A stretch of DNA of 7,414 nucleotides from a virus. Taxonomy: Duplodnaviria; Heunggongvirae; Uroviricota; Caudoviricetes. The notes beneath the pieces were generated by a model that did no database searches, was not told the DNA's origin, and worked only from the letters and a program-made list of their open reading frames with translations. Location of the stretch: positions 1 through 7,414 of the IMG/VR virus record IMGVR_UViG_2713896831_000005; one strand, written 5' to 3'. The position numbers and the translations under genes are program-made. Positions 1 to 7,414 of this stretch are shown here, piece by piece. How positions within the stretch are numbered: position 1 is the first letter of the stretch; each line of letters starts with the position of its first letter.

Positions 1-912
1 ATGATAACCAACATCACCACAGCAAAATGGTTTTTTCCAGCCTTTGATGCAGGTTTAATGTTAGTATTTTCATCCGCAGTCACGCTCTATTGCATCAATA
101 GGATCAGCAAGAAATTCCCAGATACTAACGAATTACTACCATTTTTTGGTTTAATCGTTTGGGTCTTGTTGATCGTCGGCTACTATGTCGTTCGCTACAA
201 CAATAACTATCAGACTTCATTATCAATAATCGTAGCCGGTTCGATAGCAGGTATGGGATGGTGGATACAGTTCATCACTTCAGCCGCAAGCGATCGCAGA
301 AAGCATACCCTCAATGTAGTGCTAAGCACCAGAACATGTACTGAATATCAAACAAATCTGCGTAACTTTACTCATCTGTGGAGAGGCAATCGTCACATAC
401 CCAAAGAACTTTGTGAATGGAGAGACGATCCAGATAACCCTAAATTTCAAAACGCAAATGTTCCAAAAGAGGTCGTGGACGGCATAAACGGGATGCTATA
501 TATCCTCAACTTCTTCGAGTTTTTGGCACAAGGTATCAAAGCAAATGACCTTGATGATAAATTACTCCGCGAATGCTTTTGTGGTTTTTTGGAAGGATTA
601 GAAAGACGAGCATATTTCATTTTGTCAGAGGCACAAAAGAAGGATGAGCGTTTTTTTGAAGGTATTGTTTTCTTATGCAAGCGTTGGAACAATGATAAGT
701 CAATCATAGAAAAGCATCGTCATTCAGCCCCTCCGGTTGATATAGGGATAAGCTATCCTCCTAAAGATGAAGTGATGGAAATGTTAGGAATGACCTCACA
801 CGACCATCAGTCTCGCAAACGTAGACGTAGAAAAACAAAAAAAGTTACAACTACTCAACCTGCAGCCAACACGAGCCCTCTGAATTCATCTCAAATAGCC
901 TCATCAGGATAA
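1..912 (+). CDS. Hypothetical membrane-anchored protein (303 aa) with three predicted N-terminal transmembrane helices, a soluble domain of about 200 aa and a poly-basic C-terminal tail; function unknown
   Basis: Uninterrupted 303-codon ORF from the first base of the window to a TAA stop at 910..912. Hydrophobic segments in the translation (FFPAFDAGLMLVFSSAVTLYCI, LLPFFGLIVWVLLIVGYYVV, SLSIIVAGSIAGMGWWIQFITSA) look like three transmembrane helices, and the C-terminus is strongly basic (SRKRRRRKTKKVTT). The region is visibly AT-rich compared with the tail genes. The ATG sits at the window edge, so the true start and its ribosome-binding site cannot be checked. No family was recognised from memory. 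Confidence 0.55.
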   Translation: MITNITTAKWFFPAFDAGLMLVFSSAVTLYCINRISKKFPDTNELLPFFGLIVWVLLIVGYYVVRYNNNYQTSLSIIVAGSIAGMGWWIQFITSAASDRRKHTLNVVLSTRTCTEYQTNLRNFTHLWRGNRHIPKELCEWRDDPDNPKFQNANVPKEVVDGINGMLYILNFFEFLAQGIKANDLDDKLLRECFCGFLEGLERRAYFILSEAQKKDERFFEGIVFLCKRWNNDKSIIEKHRHSAPPVDIGISYPPKDEVMEMLGMTSHDHQSRKRRRRKTKKVTTTQPAANTSPLNSSQIASSG

Positions 913-1795: not shown

Positions 1796-2266
1796 ATGGC
1801 TTATTCTGCAGCAGCAGTTGCTAATGCCTTCATTGAGAAGGCGAACAAAGGTGAACTTTCTGAGCTGACTCCCATGAAGCTCCAGAAGTTGCTTTTCTAT
1901 ACACAATCTTGGCACTTGAAGCTGTGCAATGGCAGACCTCTTTTTGATGATCTCTTTGCACGCTGGAAGTTTGGCCCAGTAATACCGCCGCTCTATCACA
2001 TGCTAAAAAAATACGGGTCTGGTGAAATACAAGAACCCATTAGCATAATTATTGACTCAAATGGAGAGTGGAAGCGTATTACCCCCACGATACAGAAAGA
2101 CGATGCTGACGCCATGAAACTGATTGATAAAATCATAGAGGTCTATGGCGGATATTCAGGAACAGCATTATCAAATATGACTCATGCACCTGGTAGTGCC
2201 TGGAGCCGTGGAGCTGTTGACGGTGGTCCAATCACTCATACGGACATGGCTGAACATATCCATTAA
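1796..2266 (+). CDS. DUF4065 / Panacea-domain protein (PanA/SocA/GepA-like, COG3600), 156 aa; candidate antitoxin or anti-defence component
   Basis: The ORF track gives 1700..2266, but the first in-frame ATG with a ribosome-binding site is at 1796 (AAAAGGGGG at 1781..1789, 6 nt spacer). From that start the protein begins MAYSAAAVANAFIEKA and contains TPMKLQKLLFYTQSWHLKLCNGRPLFDDLFARWKFGPVIPPLYHMLKKYG, matching my recollection of the conserved DUF4065 core (MKLQKLLYFAQ ... PLF ... W..GPV ... Y). The stop overlaps the next start as TAATG. Confidence 0.7.
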   Translation: MAYSAAAVANAFIEKANKGELSELTPMKLQKLLFYTQSWHLKLCNGRPLFDDLFARWKFGPVIPPLYHMLKKYGSGEIQEPISIIIDSNGEWKRITPTIQKDDADAMKLIDKIIEVYGGYSGTALSNMTHAPGSAWSRGAVDGGPITHTDMAEHIH

Positions 2267-2652
2267 TGTCTGAATTTGAACGAATCTCCATCCCCAGCGG
2301 CACTAGATTAGGTGCCGCTCCCATTTCCAGCTCAGAAGATGAGCCTCCTTCATCTGAAGTATCCACTCGCGGTGATAATGTAACCCCGCAAAGCGTTGAA
2401 GATGCGAAATCTTATCGTAAGTTGCGGGAAATTTTCGCCGAAAAGGCTTATAAGGTAGCAAAAAAATCACTTTATGGATGGGCGATTCTACTTTTCGCAC
2501 AAGGATGGTTTTCACTGATTGGTATTCAGATTTTCTCTGACAAAGTCCTCATAGCTATAACAACCGCTGTAACACTTAACGTCTTCGCCGCTTTCCTTGG
2601 TGTAATAAGAGGACTGTTTCCTTCAGGTAAGTCCTCCGGGGAAAAAGAGTAG
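2266..2652 (+). CDS. Small two-transmembrane-helix protein (128 aa) translationally coupled to the DUF4065 gene; candidate membrane-acting toxin or effector
   Basis: The ATG overlaps the upstream stop by one base (TAATG at 2264..2268) and has no separate Shine-Dalgarno, which suggests translational coupling. The N-terminal ~65 residues are hydrophilic and acidic (SSEDEPPSSEVSTRGDNVTPQSVEDAK), followed by two hydrophobic helices (LYGWAILLFAQGWFSLIGIQIF and VLIAITTAVTLNVFAAFLGVIRGLF). The ORF ends 69 nt before a hairpin terminator. Confidence 0.6.
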   Translation: MSEFERISIPSGTRLGAAPISSSEDEPPSSEVSTRGDNVTPQSVEDAKSYRKLREIFAEKAYKVAKKSLYGWAILLFAQGWFSLIGIQIFSDKVLIAITTAVTLNVFAAFLGVIRGLFPSGKSSGEKE

Positions 2653-2767: not shown

Positions 2768-3352
2768 TTACATTGTGTCTGGTTCTTCCGGCCACTCAAT
2801 ATCAGGTGCAGTTGATGTATCAACACGGTTCAGCAACACCCGATACTTTTTCCAGGCTTCCAGCAATGAGTTTTCTTCCTCCGTTGCGATTTCCAGATCT
2901 ACAGCATCCTGAAGTGGCGCAATATGCTCACTGGCTACCTGCATCAGGTTGTTTTTTGTTTCTTCCGCCTCCCGGATCCGGAACAGTTTTTCTGCTTCCG
3001 TATCCTTCAACCAGGCTGTGCCGTTCCACTTCTGATATTCCCCTTCCGGCGATAACCAGGTAACATTTTCCGGTAACGGACCGAGTTCAGAAATAAATAA
3101 CGCGTCGCCGGAAGCCACGTCATAAACCGTTTTACCCCGATGATCTTCAACGAGATGCCACGATGACTCATCACTGTTGAAAACAGCCACGAAGCCAGCC
3201 GGAATATCTGGCGGTGCAATATCGGTACTGTTTGCAGGCAGACCTGTATGAGGTGGAATATATGCGTCACCGTCACCAATAAATTCATTAGTTCCGGCCA
3301 GCAGATTATAAATTTTTATGGTCCGTGGTTGTTCACTCATTCTGAATGCCAT
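2768..3352 (-). CDS. tfa: Tail fibre assembly protein Tfa (194 aa), lambda Tfa-like chaperone
   Basis: 194-aa minus-strand ORF. The translation ([62 protein letters not shown]...) is near-identical over most of its length to phage lambda Tfa as I recall it. Its start overlaps the stf stop (TAATG on the minus strand at 3350..3354), the expected stf-tfa arrangement. Confidence 0.95.
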
Positions 3353-6300
3353 TATGCAAGCCTCACAATATAGTTAAATGCGATGTTTTTGACGGTGTTT
3401 TCCGCGTTACCAGCAGCGTTAACGGTGATGGTGTGTCCATGTGAACCAATCGCAACGGAGTGCGTATGAGCACCAATACCGACAGTATGCGCGTGTGCAC
3501 CTGCAGATGCTGCTGTGCCGGACAGTGAATGGCTATGATTACCATCTGTACTGGTATTCGCTAACCACCCCGTAGACATACCTACTGAGCCTTGTACACC
3601 CCAGGTATTTTGACCTGAGCTTGTATAACCATATTGATAAGTATCTTTAAAAACACTGGGGTTAAATCGACGGCCATCTCTATGGCTGTGATTACCAGCT
3701 GCATTCGTGCTGCCACTTAAACTATGGGTATGCGCACCAGTGTTATTCGTGGATTTAGTGCCGTAATCAAACGACGATGTGGTTTTCGTCCCCAAATCCG
3801 TACTGGATGCGCTGGCGCTGTGGGTATGCGATTTAATGCCATCCTGTTCCTGAGACAATACGGCACGACCACTGGCGGGCTTGCCCTTAATCGTCCAGCC
3901 ACGCAAATCAGGGATCACGCCTGACGGATAAGCGGCAGCAAGTTTCGGGTAGGCAGATTTGTCAAAAGTCTGCCCCTGCATCAGGGCATAACCAAACGGA
4001 ACGGTATCTGATGGCCACGGGATTGGTGCGCCGACTGGGTAGCTTTCTGGTGGAAGATTTTTCGAGGTATAAACTTCTGCCCAGTCTTCCTCAAAACCAT
4101 AACCGTCTCTTGAAGAACGGTAGAACAGACCACCATTTCTGTAATGCGCCTTCATCTGCAAGGTCCGGCAACTTCCGACTCCGGTATAGAAGTTAACCAG
4201 AATATAGCTGTCGCCAGAGCGGGTGACATTATAAGCGCCTGATTCGGCATTCCAGGGAACGCCACCATCCGCATCGGCATATGTATCCGTTGCCCTTCTG
4301 GCAAAAGCAGCCACATGCGCGGCGGTTAAAGTAATATCTCTGGAACCATCAAACTCAACACCAGAAACCCGTCTTGGCGTTTGCAGCTTTGTTGCTGTTA
4401 ATGCATTACCGTTCAGACTTGCGGACAGTTTGGTTCCAATAACCAGTTCGCCGGTTGCGTTATCAATAGCAAACGGTCTTAATGTATTCCAGCCACCATA
4501 AACATCACCTTGATTGGTAAGCAGCAGGTAAGTTTTAGCGCCATCATTACGCCATAATGCCCCATACTCCCCACCTATCATTCGAATCTGATTACCACCA
4601 CGCGCTACAATTTCGTCTGTGGCAAAAAGTTTTTTGCACGACAAGTTATCGTTAACGATTAACGAATGAGACTCATAAAAACCACGCCCACTCTTAAAAT
4701 CAAGGATAACGTCCGCCGCGATACATTCAGTCGCCGGATTTGTTGCCCCAAACTTATAGGTCGTATCATTAACAACGAGATCAGCACCAGGTGCGGATAT
4801 TGACAGGCCATCTTCGATAAACGCAAAAACAGGGAAAGCAGCGCCATCAACATAGAACACAGAGCGCAAATCATCGCCCTTATTACTCATCATTATTGAG
4901 TGGATGGCTCGTTCATTGTTTTGATATTGCCAGAACATTCCATAAGCATAACGCCCCCTGTCAGTCCAGCCACCAGGCATAACAAATCCGTTAAACTCGC
5001 AGTTATTCATCGGATCGCCTGCGGTTCGCGTTGCCGTGGTGATAATGACCCTTGATGCCAGTTCGCTTACTGAGCCAGCAGAACGCATAACAACAACAGG
5101 GTAATATTTTCCAGATGTTGCACCTGCAGGAGCGTTAACCCGCACATAACGCATACCACGCTTATCAGCAAAGTCTGTTTTACTGACCGCGTTAATGTTG
5201 TTCAGGAAGCGTCCCTTATCGGGTATATCAGCGCCGTTCTGGTCTTTCTGCAGACGTTTCTCTGCATTGTCATAGGCTGATTTTACTGCCTTTGGCGTTG
5301 CCGCCAGCGTTTCAGACGTACTGTTGGTCGCACTGCTGAGCTGTACTATCCCCTTTTTCGTCGTACTTGCATCCTCAAGCGCCACGGCGGATGCAATATC
5401 CTCTGCCCGTTTTGCCGCTGTCTCGGCGCGCGTTGCCGCGGATTCCGCCGTACTTTTGCTCTGTGCTGCCGCCGTCGCACTGCCAGCTGCCTCTGTCGCC
5501 TTCGTGGATGCTGTCGTGGCGCTGCCCTTCGCTGCGGACGCTTGTCTGGTCGCCTCATCTTTTGAAGCAGACGCCGATGATGCCGATGACGCCGCCGAAC
5601 TGGCGGACGATGCGGCAGCCGTTTTTGAGGATTCTGCGCTGGTTTCCGACGCTTTCGCGTTCGTCTCGGATGTCTTCGCTGCGGAAGCAGACCTCGCTGC
5701 TGCGCTGGCCTGTTCAGTGGCTTCGCCAGCCTTCGTTGTGGCTGTTGAAGCAGACGATGCGGCACTTTCTGCCGATTTTCCGGCGGCGGTGGCACTGGCT
5801 GAGGCCTGCCCGGCACTTGTTGACGCGGCACTGGCAGACGACGCAGCCGCTGTTTTTGAGCCTGCCGCAGCCGAGGCGCTCTGTCCCGCTGCCGTTTCAG
5901 AAGACCTGGCGTTTGTCTCAGACGTCTTTGCCGCCTTCGCGGAATTGCCTGCCGCCGTTGCCGAGGAAGCGGCACTACTGGCGCTTGATGATGCGTTCGT
6001 TTCTGATGATTTCGCTGCCTCTTTTGAGGCCGCCGCATCCCGTGCTGAGGTGGCTGCTTCTGACGCCTTCGTGGTCGCGGCGGATGCAGAAGTGGCTGCT
6101 GATTGTTGTGACGCTGCCGCATTCGTTTCTGACGTTTTCGCCGCAGCGGCACTGGTAGCTGCCGCGCTTTTTGAGGACTCTGCAGCAGCAGCACTTTTCG
6201 ATGCTTCACTGGCCTTTGTTGATGCCGTTCCTGCGCTGGAAGATGCTGACTGAGCCGACGACGCGGCCTGTCCGGCTGACGTGCTGGCTGCGCGTGCTGA

Positions 6301-6750
6301 GCCTGCAGCATCAGTCGCATGGGTTGCCGCCTCACGGGCTGATGTGCCGGCATCGCTGGCTGACTTCTTCGCGGCTGCCGTGTTCTGTGCCACCGCGGAC
6401 GCGTTACGCGCCACCTCTTCCACCATCAGTTCAAAACGGCGCAGTGCCTCAGGACGGGCATCATCCTCCGTCATGGCACCGAGAAAATCATTCAGCGTAC
6501 CGGGTCGGGAATCTTCATACACGGTGATGGTCCCGGCATGTGACGGCGGGAATCCCTCCACCAACAGAATAACGCTGTACTGACCGTACTCAACGTCCAT
6601 GCTGTAACGCCCGGCTTCATCCGGATTTTCTGAGGCCAGCGTGTTCACCACCACCGTGGTGCTGTTACGTTTTGCTTTCAGCTGGATTGTGCAGTTCTGT
6701 ACCGGTTTTCCTGTGCCGTCTTTCAGTACACCTGAAATCTTTACTGCCAT
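3352..6750 (-). CDS. stf: Side tail fibre protein Stf (about 1132 aa), full length, with a histidine-rich HxH-repeat C-terminal receptor-binding tip
   Basis: Long minus-strand ORF. The N-terminus ([60 protein letters not shown]...) matches lambda Stf as recalled. The ORF track starts at 6756 (MNM...), but the ATG at 6750 has GGGG 5 nt upstream and gives the canonical MAVKISG start, so 6750 is preferred. The middle is a long Ala/Ser/Thr-rich low-complexity shaft. The C-terminus carries multiple HxH motifs ([45 protein letters not shown]) and ends [11 protein letters not shown], as in lambda/T4 gp37-type fibre tips. Confidence 0.9.
5407..6408 (-). repeat. Internal low-complexity quasi-repeat region of stf (Ala/Ser/Thr-rich shaft with recurring KTSETNA-type units)
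   Basis: Stf residues about 117..450 are almost only A, S, T, K, E, Q and G, with recurring units such as [41 protein letters not shown] and [18 protein letters not shown]. The underlying DNA is GC-rich and stop-poor in every frame, which explains the long overlapping spurious ORFs at 5324..6353. Boundaries are approximate. Confidence 0.5.
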
Positions 6751-6760
6751 ATTCACCCCA

Positions 6761-6788
6761 CAAAAAAGCCCGCCTGAACCGGCGGGCT
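6761..6788 (-). terminator. Rho-independent terminator downstream of lom, immediately upstream of stf
   Basis: On the minus strand an 8-bp GC-rich stem (AGCCCGCC / GGCGGGCT, 6767..6788 on plus coordinates) with a 6-nt loop is followed by TTTTTT (plus-strand A-run at 6762..6767). It lies 27 nt after the lom stop and just before the stf ribosome-binding site. Confidence 0.55.
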
Positions 6789-6814: not shown

Positions 6815-7414
6815 TCAGAATTTATAACCGATACCCACGATGAAACCGTCAGTGCGCCAGTCACCACTGCCGGAGCCTTCATAAGCAATATCAATGGCCA
6901 CGGATTCGGTCGGGTTAAACTGCACGCCAGCCCCCCACGCCAGAGACGTGTTGCTGTGGCGACCGTCATCACTTCCGGTCAGCACATCGTGCTTTTTCCC
7001 CTTGTTGTCAGTTACGCGAAGATAATCCCCGGAGAAAGTCGACACACGGCTGTAAGCTACACCCGCCATCGCATACGCGCTGAACCATTCATTCACGCGC
7101 ACAGACGGCCCCGCCATTACGCTGAACCAGCGGTTACGAACGGAATCTTCATGCCAGCGGGTATCGCTGTAACGGGTCAGCTGGCGATTCTTGTCTCCTG
7201 CATAGCTGAATGACGTCACCAGCCCCAGTGTGTCCGTAAACTCATAACGGTATTTCACGTTAATCCCGTTCAGATCATCGCTGCCGGGGACGTTCGTCGA
7301 GGCATGAAGATACCCCGCGCTCAGCGTGGACTGATGTTCAGACGCCCATGCAGGCGCACCGGATACGGCCAGACAAATGGCTGCGGACAAAATTGCTGCA
7401 CAAACTTTACGCAT
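6815..7414 (-). CDS. lom: Lom outer-membrane protein (Ail/Lom/OmpX family beta-barrel, 199 aa)
   Basis: Minus-strand ORF with a signal-peptide-like N-terminus (MRKVCAAILSAAICLAVSGAPAWA). Conserved blocks match lambda Lom as recalled (GINVKYRYE, VMAGP, SAYAMAGVA, and the C-terminal DIAYEGSGSGDWRTDGFIVGIGYKF ending in aromatic F). The start codon is at the last bases of the window, so the promoter and ribosome-binding site are not visible. Confidence 0.95.
   Translation of the reverse strand: MRKVCAAILSAAICLAVSGAPAWASEHQSTLSAGYLHASTNVPGSDDLNGINVKYRYEFTDTLGLVTSFSYAGDKNRQLTRYSDTRWHEDSVRNRWFSVMAGPSVRVNEWFSAYAMAGVAYSRVSTFSGDYLRVTDNKGKKHDVLTGSDDGRHSNTSLAWGAGVQFNPTESVAIDIAYEGSGSGDWRTDGFIVGIGYKF

Follow-up and report, generated by a model that had tools for sequence, protein, structure and literature searches.

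The stretch of DNA analysed here (7,414 nucleotides, hereafter referred to as the window) encodes, with a probability that we put at roughly 85%, a side tail fibre of the Rac StfR type and the Tfa chaperone that goes with it, both belonging to a lambda-like prophage that resides in prfC, is some 46 kb long and appears to be complete. The pair consists of ordinary, already annotated prophage genes that are nearly identical to stfR and tfaR of Escherichia coli K-12, save for a swapped tip of 48 residues. Alignment to Ur-lambda Stf, StfR and T4 gp37 assigns the tip to the gp37 type and the gene as a whole to the longer Rac StfR type. The coordinates of the genes and of the individual domains are given in table 1.

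Table 1. Features of the stf–tfa region of the window, with the evidence for each.
Feature	Stf residues or protein length	Position	Strand	Evidence and remarks
lom, Ail/Lom outer-membrane beta-barrel gene upstream of stf	199 aa	6815..7414	minus	Pfam Ail_Lom, E=1.4e-122
Intrinsic terminator between lom and stf		6767..6788	minus	8-bp stem (7 of the pairs GC) and a T run; lies 16 nt 5' of the stf start codon
stf CDS	1132 aa	3352..6750	minus	Rac StfR-type side tail fibre; TAA stop
StfN domain	1–94	6469..6750	minus	Pfam phage_tail_N, PDB 9e7m, identity to lambda
Ala/Ser/Thr-rich shaft	102–464	5359..6447	minus	Alignment with Ur-lambda Stf, composition
Conserved motif	465–490	5281..5358	minus	Alignment with lambda; inside lambda's hinge region
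Middle module	491–901 (411 residues)	4048..5280	minus	In common with StfR; alignment, Pfam, PDB
gp34-type trimerisation domain	663–762	4465–4764	minus	Pfam Gp34_trimer, E=3.4e-27; PDB 4uxe, 5nxf (gp34)
Mu S-like segment of the middle module	809–907		minus	PDB 8ju3 match
Collar domain	907–954	3889..4032	minus	Pfam Collar, E=4e-11; aligned to T4 gp37 tip structure 2xgf
Descending half of needle stem	955–1023	3682..3888	minus	HxH motifs 1–3
Tip subdomain	1024–1071 (48 aa)	3538..3681	minus	Putative receptor-binding pole; between HxH 3 and 4
Ascending half of needle stem	1072–1132	3355..3537	minus	HxH motifs 4–7 and conserved C-terminus
tfa, tail fibre assembly chaperone	194 aa	2768..3352	minus	Pfam Caudo_TAP (PF02413), E=2.8e-44

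The original prediction described stf as a single uninterrupted ORF of about 1132 codons, and both the ORF list and the RefSeq CDS agree with it. The listed ORF (3352..6756, minus strand, 1134 aa) starts with GTG; an ATG at 6750, two codons further inside and with the sequence GGGGTG 5 nt on its 5' side, yields a protein of 1132 aa with zero internal stops. An identical CDS of 3399 nt is annotated in RefSeq, where a gene with 100% DNA identity to the window's stf bears the name stfR. The whole window occurs at 100.0% identity in at least eight complete E. coli genomes that are independent of one another, which shows that the open frame did not arise from a sequencing error. The protein ends on precisely the residues that close K-12 StfR, T4 gp37 and Ur-lambda Stf and is therefore not truncated. 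The Ala/Ser-rich segment (approximately 5350–6450, with GC up to 63%) does leave other long ORFs open on both strands, for example 5346–6353 on the minus strand and 5324–6253 and 5367–6158 on the plus strand, which might be taken to mean that the long stf frame is a by-product of composition, or else an assembly error, instead of a real single gene. We regard this as refuted, with next to no probability left to it: the competing ORFs are confined to the stop-poor repeat region, the Pfam and PDB matches at both ends of stf and in several internal segments all lie in the same frame, the similarity of the protein to StfR runs through its whole length, and an artefact is at odds with the identical genomes.

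The closest well-known counterpart is StfR of the Rac prophage of E. coli K-12 (StfR/TfaR, b1372/b1373), whose domains are arranged identically along the entire protein. A single BLASTP alignment, middle module included, joins residues 1–1132 of the window's Stf with residues 1–1120 of StfR at 94.7% identity. At the DNA level, the identity profile against Rac stays at 97–100% per 60-nt interval outside one cassette of about 230 nt, which is the sole real difference between the two genes (divergent DNA at approximately 3500–3745); here, the tip subdomain of Rac StfR has 36 residues and that of the window's Stf 48 unrelated ones. Upstream of stf, Rac carries lom as the window does, whereas the final few residues of Tfa and all the DNA downstream differ, with the invertase gene pinR in Rac and a Panacea gene pair in the window. 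Rac is defective, having lost most of its genes, while the prophage of the window looks complete. Even closer is the Stf of PhiR34_1 (PV340559), a sequenced phage whose record gives E. coli K-12 MG1655 as the host: it is 99.5% identical to the window's Stf, its tip cassette being 100% identical at the DNA level. The Tfa of PhiR34_1 has 94% identity to that of the window but differs at its C-terminus, and the downstream neighbour of tfa in that phage is a serine recombinase gene, not the Panacea pair. Related lambdoid phages with this Stf are Kati, PhiR42_1, PhiR68_2, mEp460, PhiR26_1 and PhiR30_1. Literature searches covering PhiR34_1, mEp332 and StfR turned up no account of what the StfR-type fibre binds or does, no experiments on the fibres of these phages and no paper dealing with this type of tip.

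The N-terminus and Tfa had both been predicted to be lambda-like, and so they are. Residues 1–134 of Stf match the prophage tail fibre N-terminal domain of Pfam (phage_tail_N, PF08400; E=1.6e-71), and StfN matches the lambda tail fibre protein in a virion structure (PDB 9e7m, E=2e-51) and is identical to lambda StfN at 87 of 94 residues. In lambda, twelve copies of StfN build a collar by which the fibres are attached to the tail where gpV and gpM meet (PMC12617516). The shaft that follows consists of Ala, Ser and Thr to 71%, lacks proline and contains the motif K[TS]SETNA four times. In the alignment, its homologue in Ur-lambda Stf is the proximal coiled coil, a coiled-coil assignment that was made for lambda (PMC12617516); the shaft of the window's Stf has 105 additional residues (304–408) with no lambda counterpart. 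The shaft is repetitive at the protein level only: a recent duplication of DNA was rejected, Tandem Repeats Finder having returned trivial arrays only, and a BLASTN comparison of the extra 105-codon segment with the rest gave a single match of 26 nt.

The motif at residues 465–490 is the final segment in common with lambda before the two proteins diverge, and residues 441–521 around it match the tail fibre protein S of Mu (PDB 5yvq, 8ju3). Similarity to lambda ends at residue 490 and returns at residue 903; what lies between is the 411-residue middle module, in whose place lambda has a short, unrelated linker of about 40–130 residues. Shared by Ur-lambda Stf and the window's Stf are StfN, the Ala/Ser-rich shaft, the KKGIVQLSS...ATPKAVK motif and the gp37-type collar; the collar and HxH needle are about 70% identical between them, the C-terminal 30 residues being fully identical. 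Lambda, however, has eight HxH rungs instead of seven, and its tip subdomain of 45 residues is unrelated to the 48 residues found here. Ur-lambda Stf has 774 aa; in laboratory lambda, its place is taken by two separate frames, orf-401 and orf-314. The gene of the window is not a repaired version of lambda stf: the two diverge over residues 491–902, and as this divergence begins shortly before the point where lambda PaPa has its frameshift, the frameshift site has no counterpart here.

The C-terminal part was predicted to be a tip with HxH repeats, and comparison with the T4 long tail fibre revealed it to be one of the gp37 type. Residues 902–1132 match the crystal structure of the T4 gp37 tip (PDB 2xgf) with E=2.7e-84, a match that is decisive for the fold, and collar, stem and C-terminus align with T4 without large gaps, the collar being followed by an HxH stem in the gp37 register. 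All seven HxH motifs fall within residues 975–1106 (the first three with histidines at 975/977, 1007/1009 and 1021/1023), compared with a mean of 0.34 and a maximum of four motifs in 2000 shuffled versions of the protein. All 14 histidines are conserved, and the spacings of the motifs (29, 11, 48, 11, 6 and 6, against 29, 11, 34, 11, 6 and 6 in T4) differ solely in the interval that holds the tip subdomain. By analogy, this part of Stf would form a trimeric needle in which the HxH histidines coordinate metal ions octahedrally. The variable insert of 48 residues separates the descending half of the stem from the ascending one; it is dissimilar in sequence to the 34-residue subdomain of T4 and situated at the position of gp37 residues 932–959, which have been mapped as the LPS/OmpC-binding tip subdomain of T4 (PMC6957217). 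The docking domain and shaft of gp37 are unrelated to those of the window's Stf, the former being a myovirus long tail fibre and the latter a siphovirus side fibre. The original prediction had regarded the histidine-rich tip as the swapped part that sets specificity. The histidine-rich stem proved instead to be conserved (97–100% DNA identity to Rac), yet a piece of the tip is indeed exchanged, namely the 48 residues between HxH 3 and 4, which would also be the piece that determines specificity.

The gene for the chaperone lies directly downstream of stf (2768–3352), as had been proposed, its ATG overlapping the TAA of stf by one base (TAATG). With its Caudo_TAP domain and its place immediately behind the fibre gene, the protein falls among the Tfa/gp38 chaperones; it is 95.3% identical to TfaR, 94.2% to lambda Tfa and 28.9% to T4 gp38 (E=1.6e-17), the homologue that is encoded directly 3' of gp37 in T4. 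The Panacea gene pair follows tfa on its 3' side. Lom of the window is 45% identical to lambda Lom. An invertible-segment organisation as in the G segment of Mu, the C segment of P1 and the P segment of e14 was ruled out: neither an invertase gene nor a second tfa or a second copy of the tip, that is, an alternative cassette, is present in the window. PADLOC defence-system models gave zero meaningful matches, either to Stf and Tfa or to the cargo genes next to them.

The host prophage, which is inserted at the 5' end of prfC of E. coli, contains an integrase, a repressor, Q, lysis, terminase, portal and head genes and a full lambda-like tail module. The order annotated in RefSeq at the identical locus is tape measure, M, L, K, I, J, lom, stf and tfa, and the order J–lom–stf–tfa, the same in lambda and PhiR34_1, is that expected of a side-fibre gene. 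At the two ends of the prophage there is an exact core of 14 bp, the only exact repeat of at least 14 bp between them, within a longer, imperfect repeat (about 50 bp) that stems from prfC, which suggests an att site. Replication genes were not identified with certainty, and there are a few pseudogenes (DUF551 and a small hypothetical gene). As every module that one would expect is there and an att-like repeat marks either end, the prophage looks complete.

The analysis shows the structure of the genes, their homologies, the register of the HxH motifs, the swap of the cassette and the prophage context; what we infer about expression, assembly, metal binding, receptor and inducibility of the window's Stf can be put together as a mechanism drawn by homology with Ur-lambda and T4. 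During late lytic growth, Q-antiterminated transcription would pass the terminator located after lom and reach stf and tfa, which would be translationally coupled. Tfa would aid trimerisation of the C-terminal gp37-type needle, an intertwined beta structure with seven metal ions, each held by six HxH histidines. Four Stf trimers would dock via the N-terminal StfN collar at the junction of tube and tip, the Ala/Ser-rich shaft and the StfR-specific middle module keeping the needle away from the tail. The 48-residue subdomain at the distal pole may then bind reversibly to a cell-surface receptor, thus speeding adsorption ahead of irreversible binding by the central fibre J. For Ur-lambda Stf, four trimers, the StfN collar, binding to OmpC and adsorption accelerated 10–30 times have been described (PMC12617516). 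Our best guess at the receptor is an OmpC-type porin and/or a core sugar of LPS, as may be expected from lambda, T4 and Gifsy-1. The tip subdomain, which is rich in aromatic residues and Arg/Lys, has no detectable similarity to its counterparts in StfR, T4 and lambda; the receptor is not transferable by homology.

It is conceivable, though not very probable, that stf is intact but idle, the prophage forming no particles or the fibre being dispensable, and that the gene persists mainly as a recombination reservoir of tail-fibre sequence. An intact ORF is indeed weak evidence of function, because the defective Rac prophage of K-12 retains an intact stfR of 1120 aa, and lambda is known to recombine with Rac and Qin in the stf–tfa region (PMC3945230). 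Side fibres are not required for lambda plaques (PMC12617516), so viable phages carrying stf are no proof that the fibre works. The few pseudogenes inside the prophage may be read in the same way. All this has to be set against a prophage in which no expected module and neither of the att-like repeats is missing, when Rac has lost most of its genes, against the preservation of stf, tfa and their stop/start overlap, and against seven sequenced genomes of lambdoid phages whose Stf has this tip as well.

If the fibre is functional, its tip might bind an LPS core sugar and no porin, in the manner of Gifsy-1 Stf and, on E. coli B, of T4 gp37; we consider this a possibility to be taken seriously, although the odds are somewhat against it. 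The Stf tip of Gifsy-1, which targets galactose II of the LPS core, is about 55% identical to that of the window, and the aromatic and Arg/Lys-rich character of the 48-residue subdomain suits contacts with sugars and phosphates. Positive charge would, however, also suit the OmpC trimer, whose cavity has been described as negatively charged in the work on Ur-lambda (PMC12617516), and OmpC is used by the relatives lambda Stf and, on K-12, T4 gp37. The T4 tip subdomain binds both LPS glucose and OmpC, via overlapping patches (PMC6957217).

The tip cassette is present in 1151 of 5426 complete E. coli genomes (21%), and it has a counterpart outside lambdoid phages. In gp37 of P896 (OL451225; Gaprivervirus, Tevenvirinae), a virulent phage, 45 of the 48 residues of the tip subdomain are identical to those of the window. 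The DNA identity to positions 3556–3690 of the window is 93–98%, while the flanking stem DNA is just 64–81% identical. Otherwise, the fibre backbone of P896 is that of a T-even phage, with eight HxH rungs instead of seven and a gp38 only 27% identical to Tfa of the window. We give slightly less than even odds to the idea that the 48-residue tip is a mobile receptor-binding cassette swapped recently and directly between lambdoid prophages and P896, with the conserved HxH-coding stem serving as the recombination substrate, and that its target on the cell may be a receptor or receptor variant other than those of T4, lambda and K-12 StfR.

Phage textbooks already cover side tail fibres of this kind, chaperones such as Tfa, needles with HxH motifs like that of gp37, and the exchange of fibre tips as mosaic pieces. 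The stf and tfa genes of the window are of little consequence for basic biology, the exact gene being already present as stfR in RefSeq. The clean swap at stf, with a backbone that is otherwise nearly identical, an exchange confined between HxH 3 and 4 and a chaperone that stays with the backbone, is useful in chimeric fibre design, and the tip cassette, if indeed mobile, would constitute a ready-made module for engineering of host range. Being very common, this type of tip is also a reasonable candidate for receptor mapping. An earlier survey reported recent mosaics of temperate and virulent coliphages to be absent and viewed shared tail fibres as the outcome of ancient events, with invertases as the probable driver (PMC3945230); the exchange with P896, if true, would therefore provide a concrete and recent counter-example.

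The long reading frame taken in the original prediction for an uninterrupted side tail fibre gene (stf) is real and reproducible, because the E. coli GN4554 chromosome, like several other complete genomes, matches the whole window at 100% identity. The same CDS is annotated there as 'stfR: prophage tail fiber N-terminal domain-containing protein', so the predicted coordinates are correct, and stf with its chaperone gene tfa is an ordinary, already annotated feature. The genes lom, stf and tfa are collinear on the minus strand (see table). The frame is open from a GTG at 6756, but the ATG at 6750, with GGGGTG 5 nt upstream, is the probable start; the stf stop and the tfa start overlap by one base (TAATG), tfa adjoining directly downstream as predicted. 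Several alternative-frame and opposite-strand ORFs of 260-335 codons, lying in the part encoding the Ala/Ser-rich shaft (GC up to 63%), are by-products of stop-poor GCN/TCN repeats and not genes.

Features of the window, of the encoded Stf protein and of the prophage ends in NZ_CP102694
Feature	Position	Strand	Remarks
DUF4760 protein gene	1-912	+	303 aa; membrane helices predicted near N-terminus
UmuD-like S24 peptidase pseudogene and adjoining intact DinI-family gene	984-1220, 1293-1535	-, +
Panacea gene	1700 (or 1796)-2266	+	Panacea/SocA antitoxin domain, Pfam PF13274, E=3.4e-20
ORF downstream of Panacea gene	2266-2652	+	128 aa; two hydrophobic stretches, about residues 72-115
tfa	2768-3352	-
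stf	3352-6750	-	1132 aa; long ORF from GTG 3352-6756
Block divergent from Rac (cassette)	~3500-3745
Segment shared with P896 gp37	3556-3690	-	DNA 93-98% identical; flanks 64-81%
Alternative ORFs	5324-6353
Intrinsic terminator	6767-6788	-	8-bp stem, 7 GC pairs, then T run
lom	6815-7414	-	full-length Ail/Lom family match
Stf, lambda virion tail fibre protein 9e7m	residues 1-94		solved structure, E=2e-51
Stf, phage_tail_N	residues 1-134		Pfam, E=1.6e-71
Stf, shaft	residues 102-464		Ala+Ser+Thr 71%, no proline
Stf, Mu fibre protein S	residues 441-521, 809-907		solved structure
Stf, Gp34_trimer	residues 663-762		Pfam
Stf, T4 gp34	residues 706-777		solved structure
Stf, T4 gp37 receptor-binding tip 2xgf	residues 902-1132		solved structure, E=2.7e-84
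Stf, Collar	residues 907-954		Pfam
Stf, seven HxH motifs	residues 975-1106
Prophage end (L003)	18688-18740
Prophage end (L004)	18310-18362
Second DinI-like gene (L003)	18969-19217		extreme prophage end, beside prfC

The lambda-like character proposed for the N-terminus and for tfa is borne out by the match of the former to the lambda virion protein and by the 94.2% identity of Tfa to lambda Tfa (95.3% to TfaR of the K-12 prophage Rac; T4 gp38 is a distant relative at 28.9%, E=1.6e-17). The gene could be read as a lambda stf lacking the frameshift. When Ur-lambda Stf (774 aa) was reconstructed by joining the two lambda ORFs, the window protein proved collinear with it to residue 490, but its shaft is 105 residues longer, 411 residues replace a short unrelated linker of lambda, and similarity resumes only at the gp37-like tip (about 70% identity). 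With K-12 StfR, in contrast, it is collinear over its full length at 94.7% identity, and with Stf of the lambdoid phage PhiR34_1 it shares 99.5%. Since collinearity with StfR is unbroken whereas similarity to lambda breaks after residue 490, and nothing here corresponds to the frameshift site, we reject the lambda reading; judged by its sequence, the fibre is of the StfR type. Lom, encoded between J and stf, has only 45% identity to lambda Lom and has thus drifted much further from lambda than the genes beside it.

The homologue of the shaft in Ur-lambda Stf is the proximal coiled coil; the shaft repeats are visible in the protein and not in the DNA. A weak Pfam match to a fibre repeat was also found. 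The HxH motifs are confined to the tip (in shuffled Stf they averaged 0.34 and never exceeded 4). Successive motifs are separated by 29, 11, 48, 11, 6 and 6 residues, compared with 29, 11, 34, 11, 6 and 6 in T4 gp37 and 29, 11, 36, 11, 6 and 6 in K-12 StfR, so that the three proteins with seven motifs differ in a single interval, the one from motif 3 to motif 4. Ur-lambda Stf (39, 11, 45, 11, 6, 6, 6) and gp37 of phage P896 (39, 11, 48, 11, 6, 6, 6) have eight motifs, one rung more. In T4 gp37, residues 932-959 fall into this stretch from motif 3 to motif 4; they form a 'tip subdomain', inserted in the stem, to which LPS- and OmpC-binding residues map (PMC6957217). The histidine-rich part is thus a conserved structural stem, and the insert between motifs 3 and 4 the putative specificity element. 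The original prediction, which assigned receptor specificity to a distal histidine-rich tip, thus holds as to the HxH-repeat tip and needs refining as to the histidine-rich part; its overall interpretation is supported, the alignments to lambda, Rac and T4 indicating a T4 gp37-type tip on an StfR-type backbone.

The surrounding prophage, about 46 kb long, sits between prfC and yjjG. Integrase, LexA-type repressor, Q antiterminator, lysis genes (holin, lysozyme, spanin), terminase, portal, a protease/capsid fusion and a full lambda-like tail module as far as J are present, as are a few small pseudogenes; the prophage, whose completeness had been singled out for checking, looks complete by gene content. 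At either end, an exact 14-bp core, GGGTGAGAAATAAT, is embedded in an imperfect repeat (about 50 bp) that comes from the prfC 5' end, where the prophage is inserted. The phage end provides a replacement prfC N-terminal coding segment, and near yjjG the original fragment that it displaced carries the annotation of a partial hypothetical gene.

Several neighbouring genes appear to be cargo. The Panacea gene and the ORF directly 3' of it (1-nt TAATG overlap), in the slot immediately downstream of tfa, look like a PanA-PanT toxin-antitoxin pair with a small membrane toxin (family described in PMC8832971); Pfam and PADLOC searches with the 128-aa protein gave no match, nor did a defence-model search with the DUF4760 protein. 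The UmuD-like pseudogene and the two DinI genes form an SOS-related cargo cluster with one decayed member. While stf-tfa is widespread, the left third of the window, with the DUF4760 gene, is rare, and of 5426 complete E. coli genomes just 16 contain at least 80% of the window.

In Ur-lambda, four Stf trimers are docked at the gpV/gpM junction by an StfN collar of twelve copies, and the tip binds OmpC reversibly, speeding adsorption 10-30 times while being non-essential (PMC12617516). By analogy, four trimers of the present fibre would dock in the same way, and a coiled-coil shaft and hinge would present the distal needle. The fibre should be longer than that of lambda, given its longer shaft and additional gp34-like and Mu S-like distal modules. 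Receptors of related tips are OmpC (lambda, T4), LPS glucose (T4) and LPS core galactose II (Gifsy-1). The strong terminator between lom and stf, 16 nt upstream of the stf ATG, would insulate stf from lysogenic lom transcription, and stf expression would therefore depend on antiterminated late transcripts.

In 60-nt sliding windows along stf and tfa, 54-60 positions match Rac, except in the final 20 or so tfa codons and everything downstream, and in a block where identity collapses, extending from near HxH 2 to between HxH 4 and HxH 5. Only in this cassette, which encodes the tip subdomain, does the gene really differ from K-12 stfR. Of the 5426 genomes, 1151 carry the cassette at an identity of at least 95% (3695 have the conserved collar and stem segment); seven lambdoid phage genomes carry it as well. 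Among 50,697 phage records its only non-lambdoid carrier is P896, a virulent T-even-like phage (Gaprivervirus), whose gp37 tip subdomain is identical to that of the window Stf at 45 of 48 residues. The chaperone follows the backbone rather than the tip subdomain, because P896 gp38, despite the shared tip, is only 27% identical to the window Tfa, whereas TfaR, serving a different tip, is 95% identical. Such a pattern is consistent with recombination inside the conserved HxH-coding stem, an idea dating from the T-even adhesin literature of the 1990s. An earlier coliphage survey reported an absence of recent mosaics between temperate and virulent phages (PMC3945230). The sequences suggest that the virulent phage took its cassette from a prophage, or the opposite, and this recent-looking sharing of a tip cassette between prophages and a T-even-like phage is the only, mildly notable, point of the locus.
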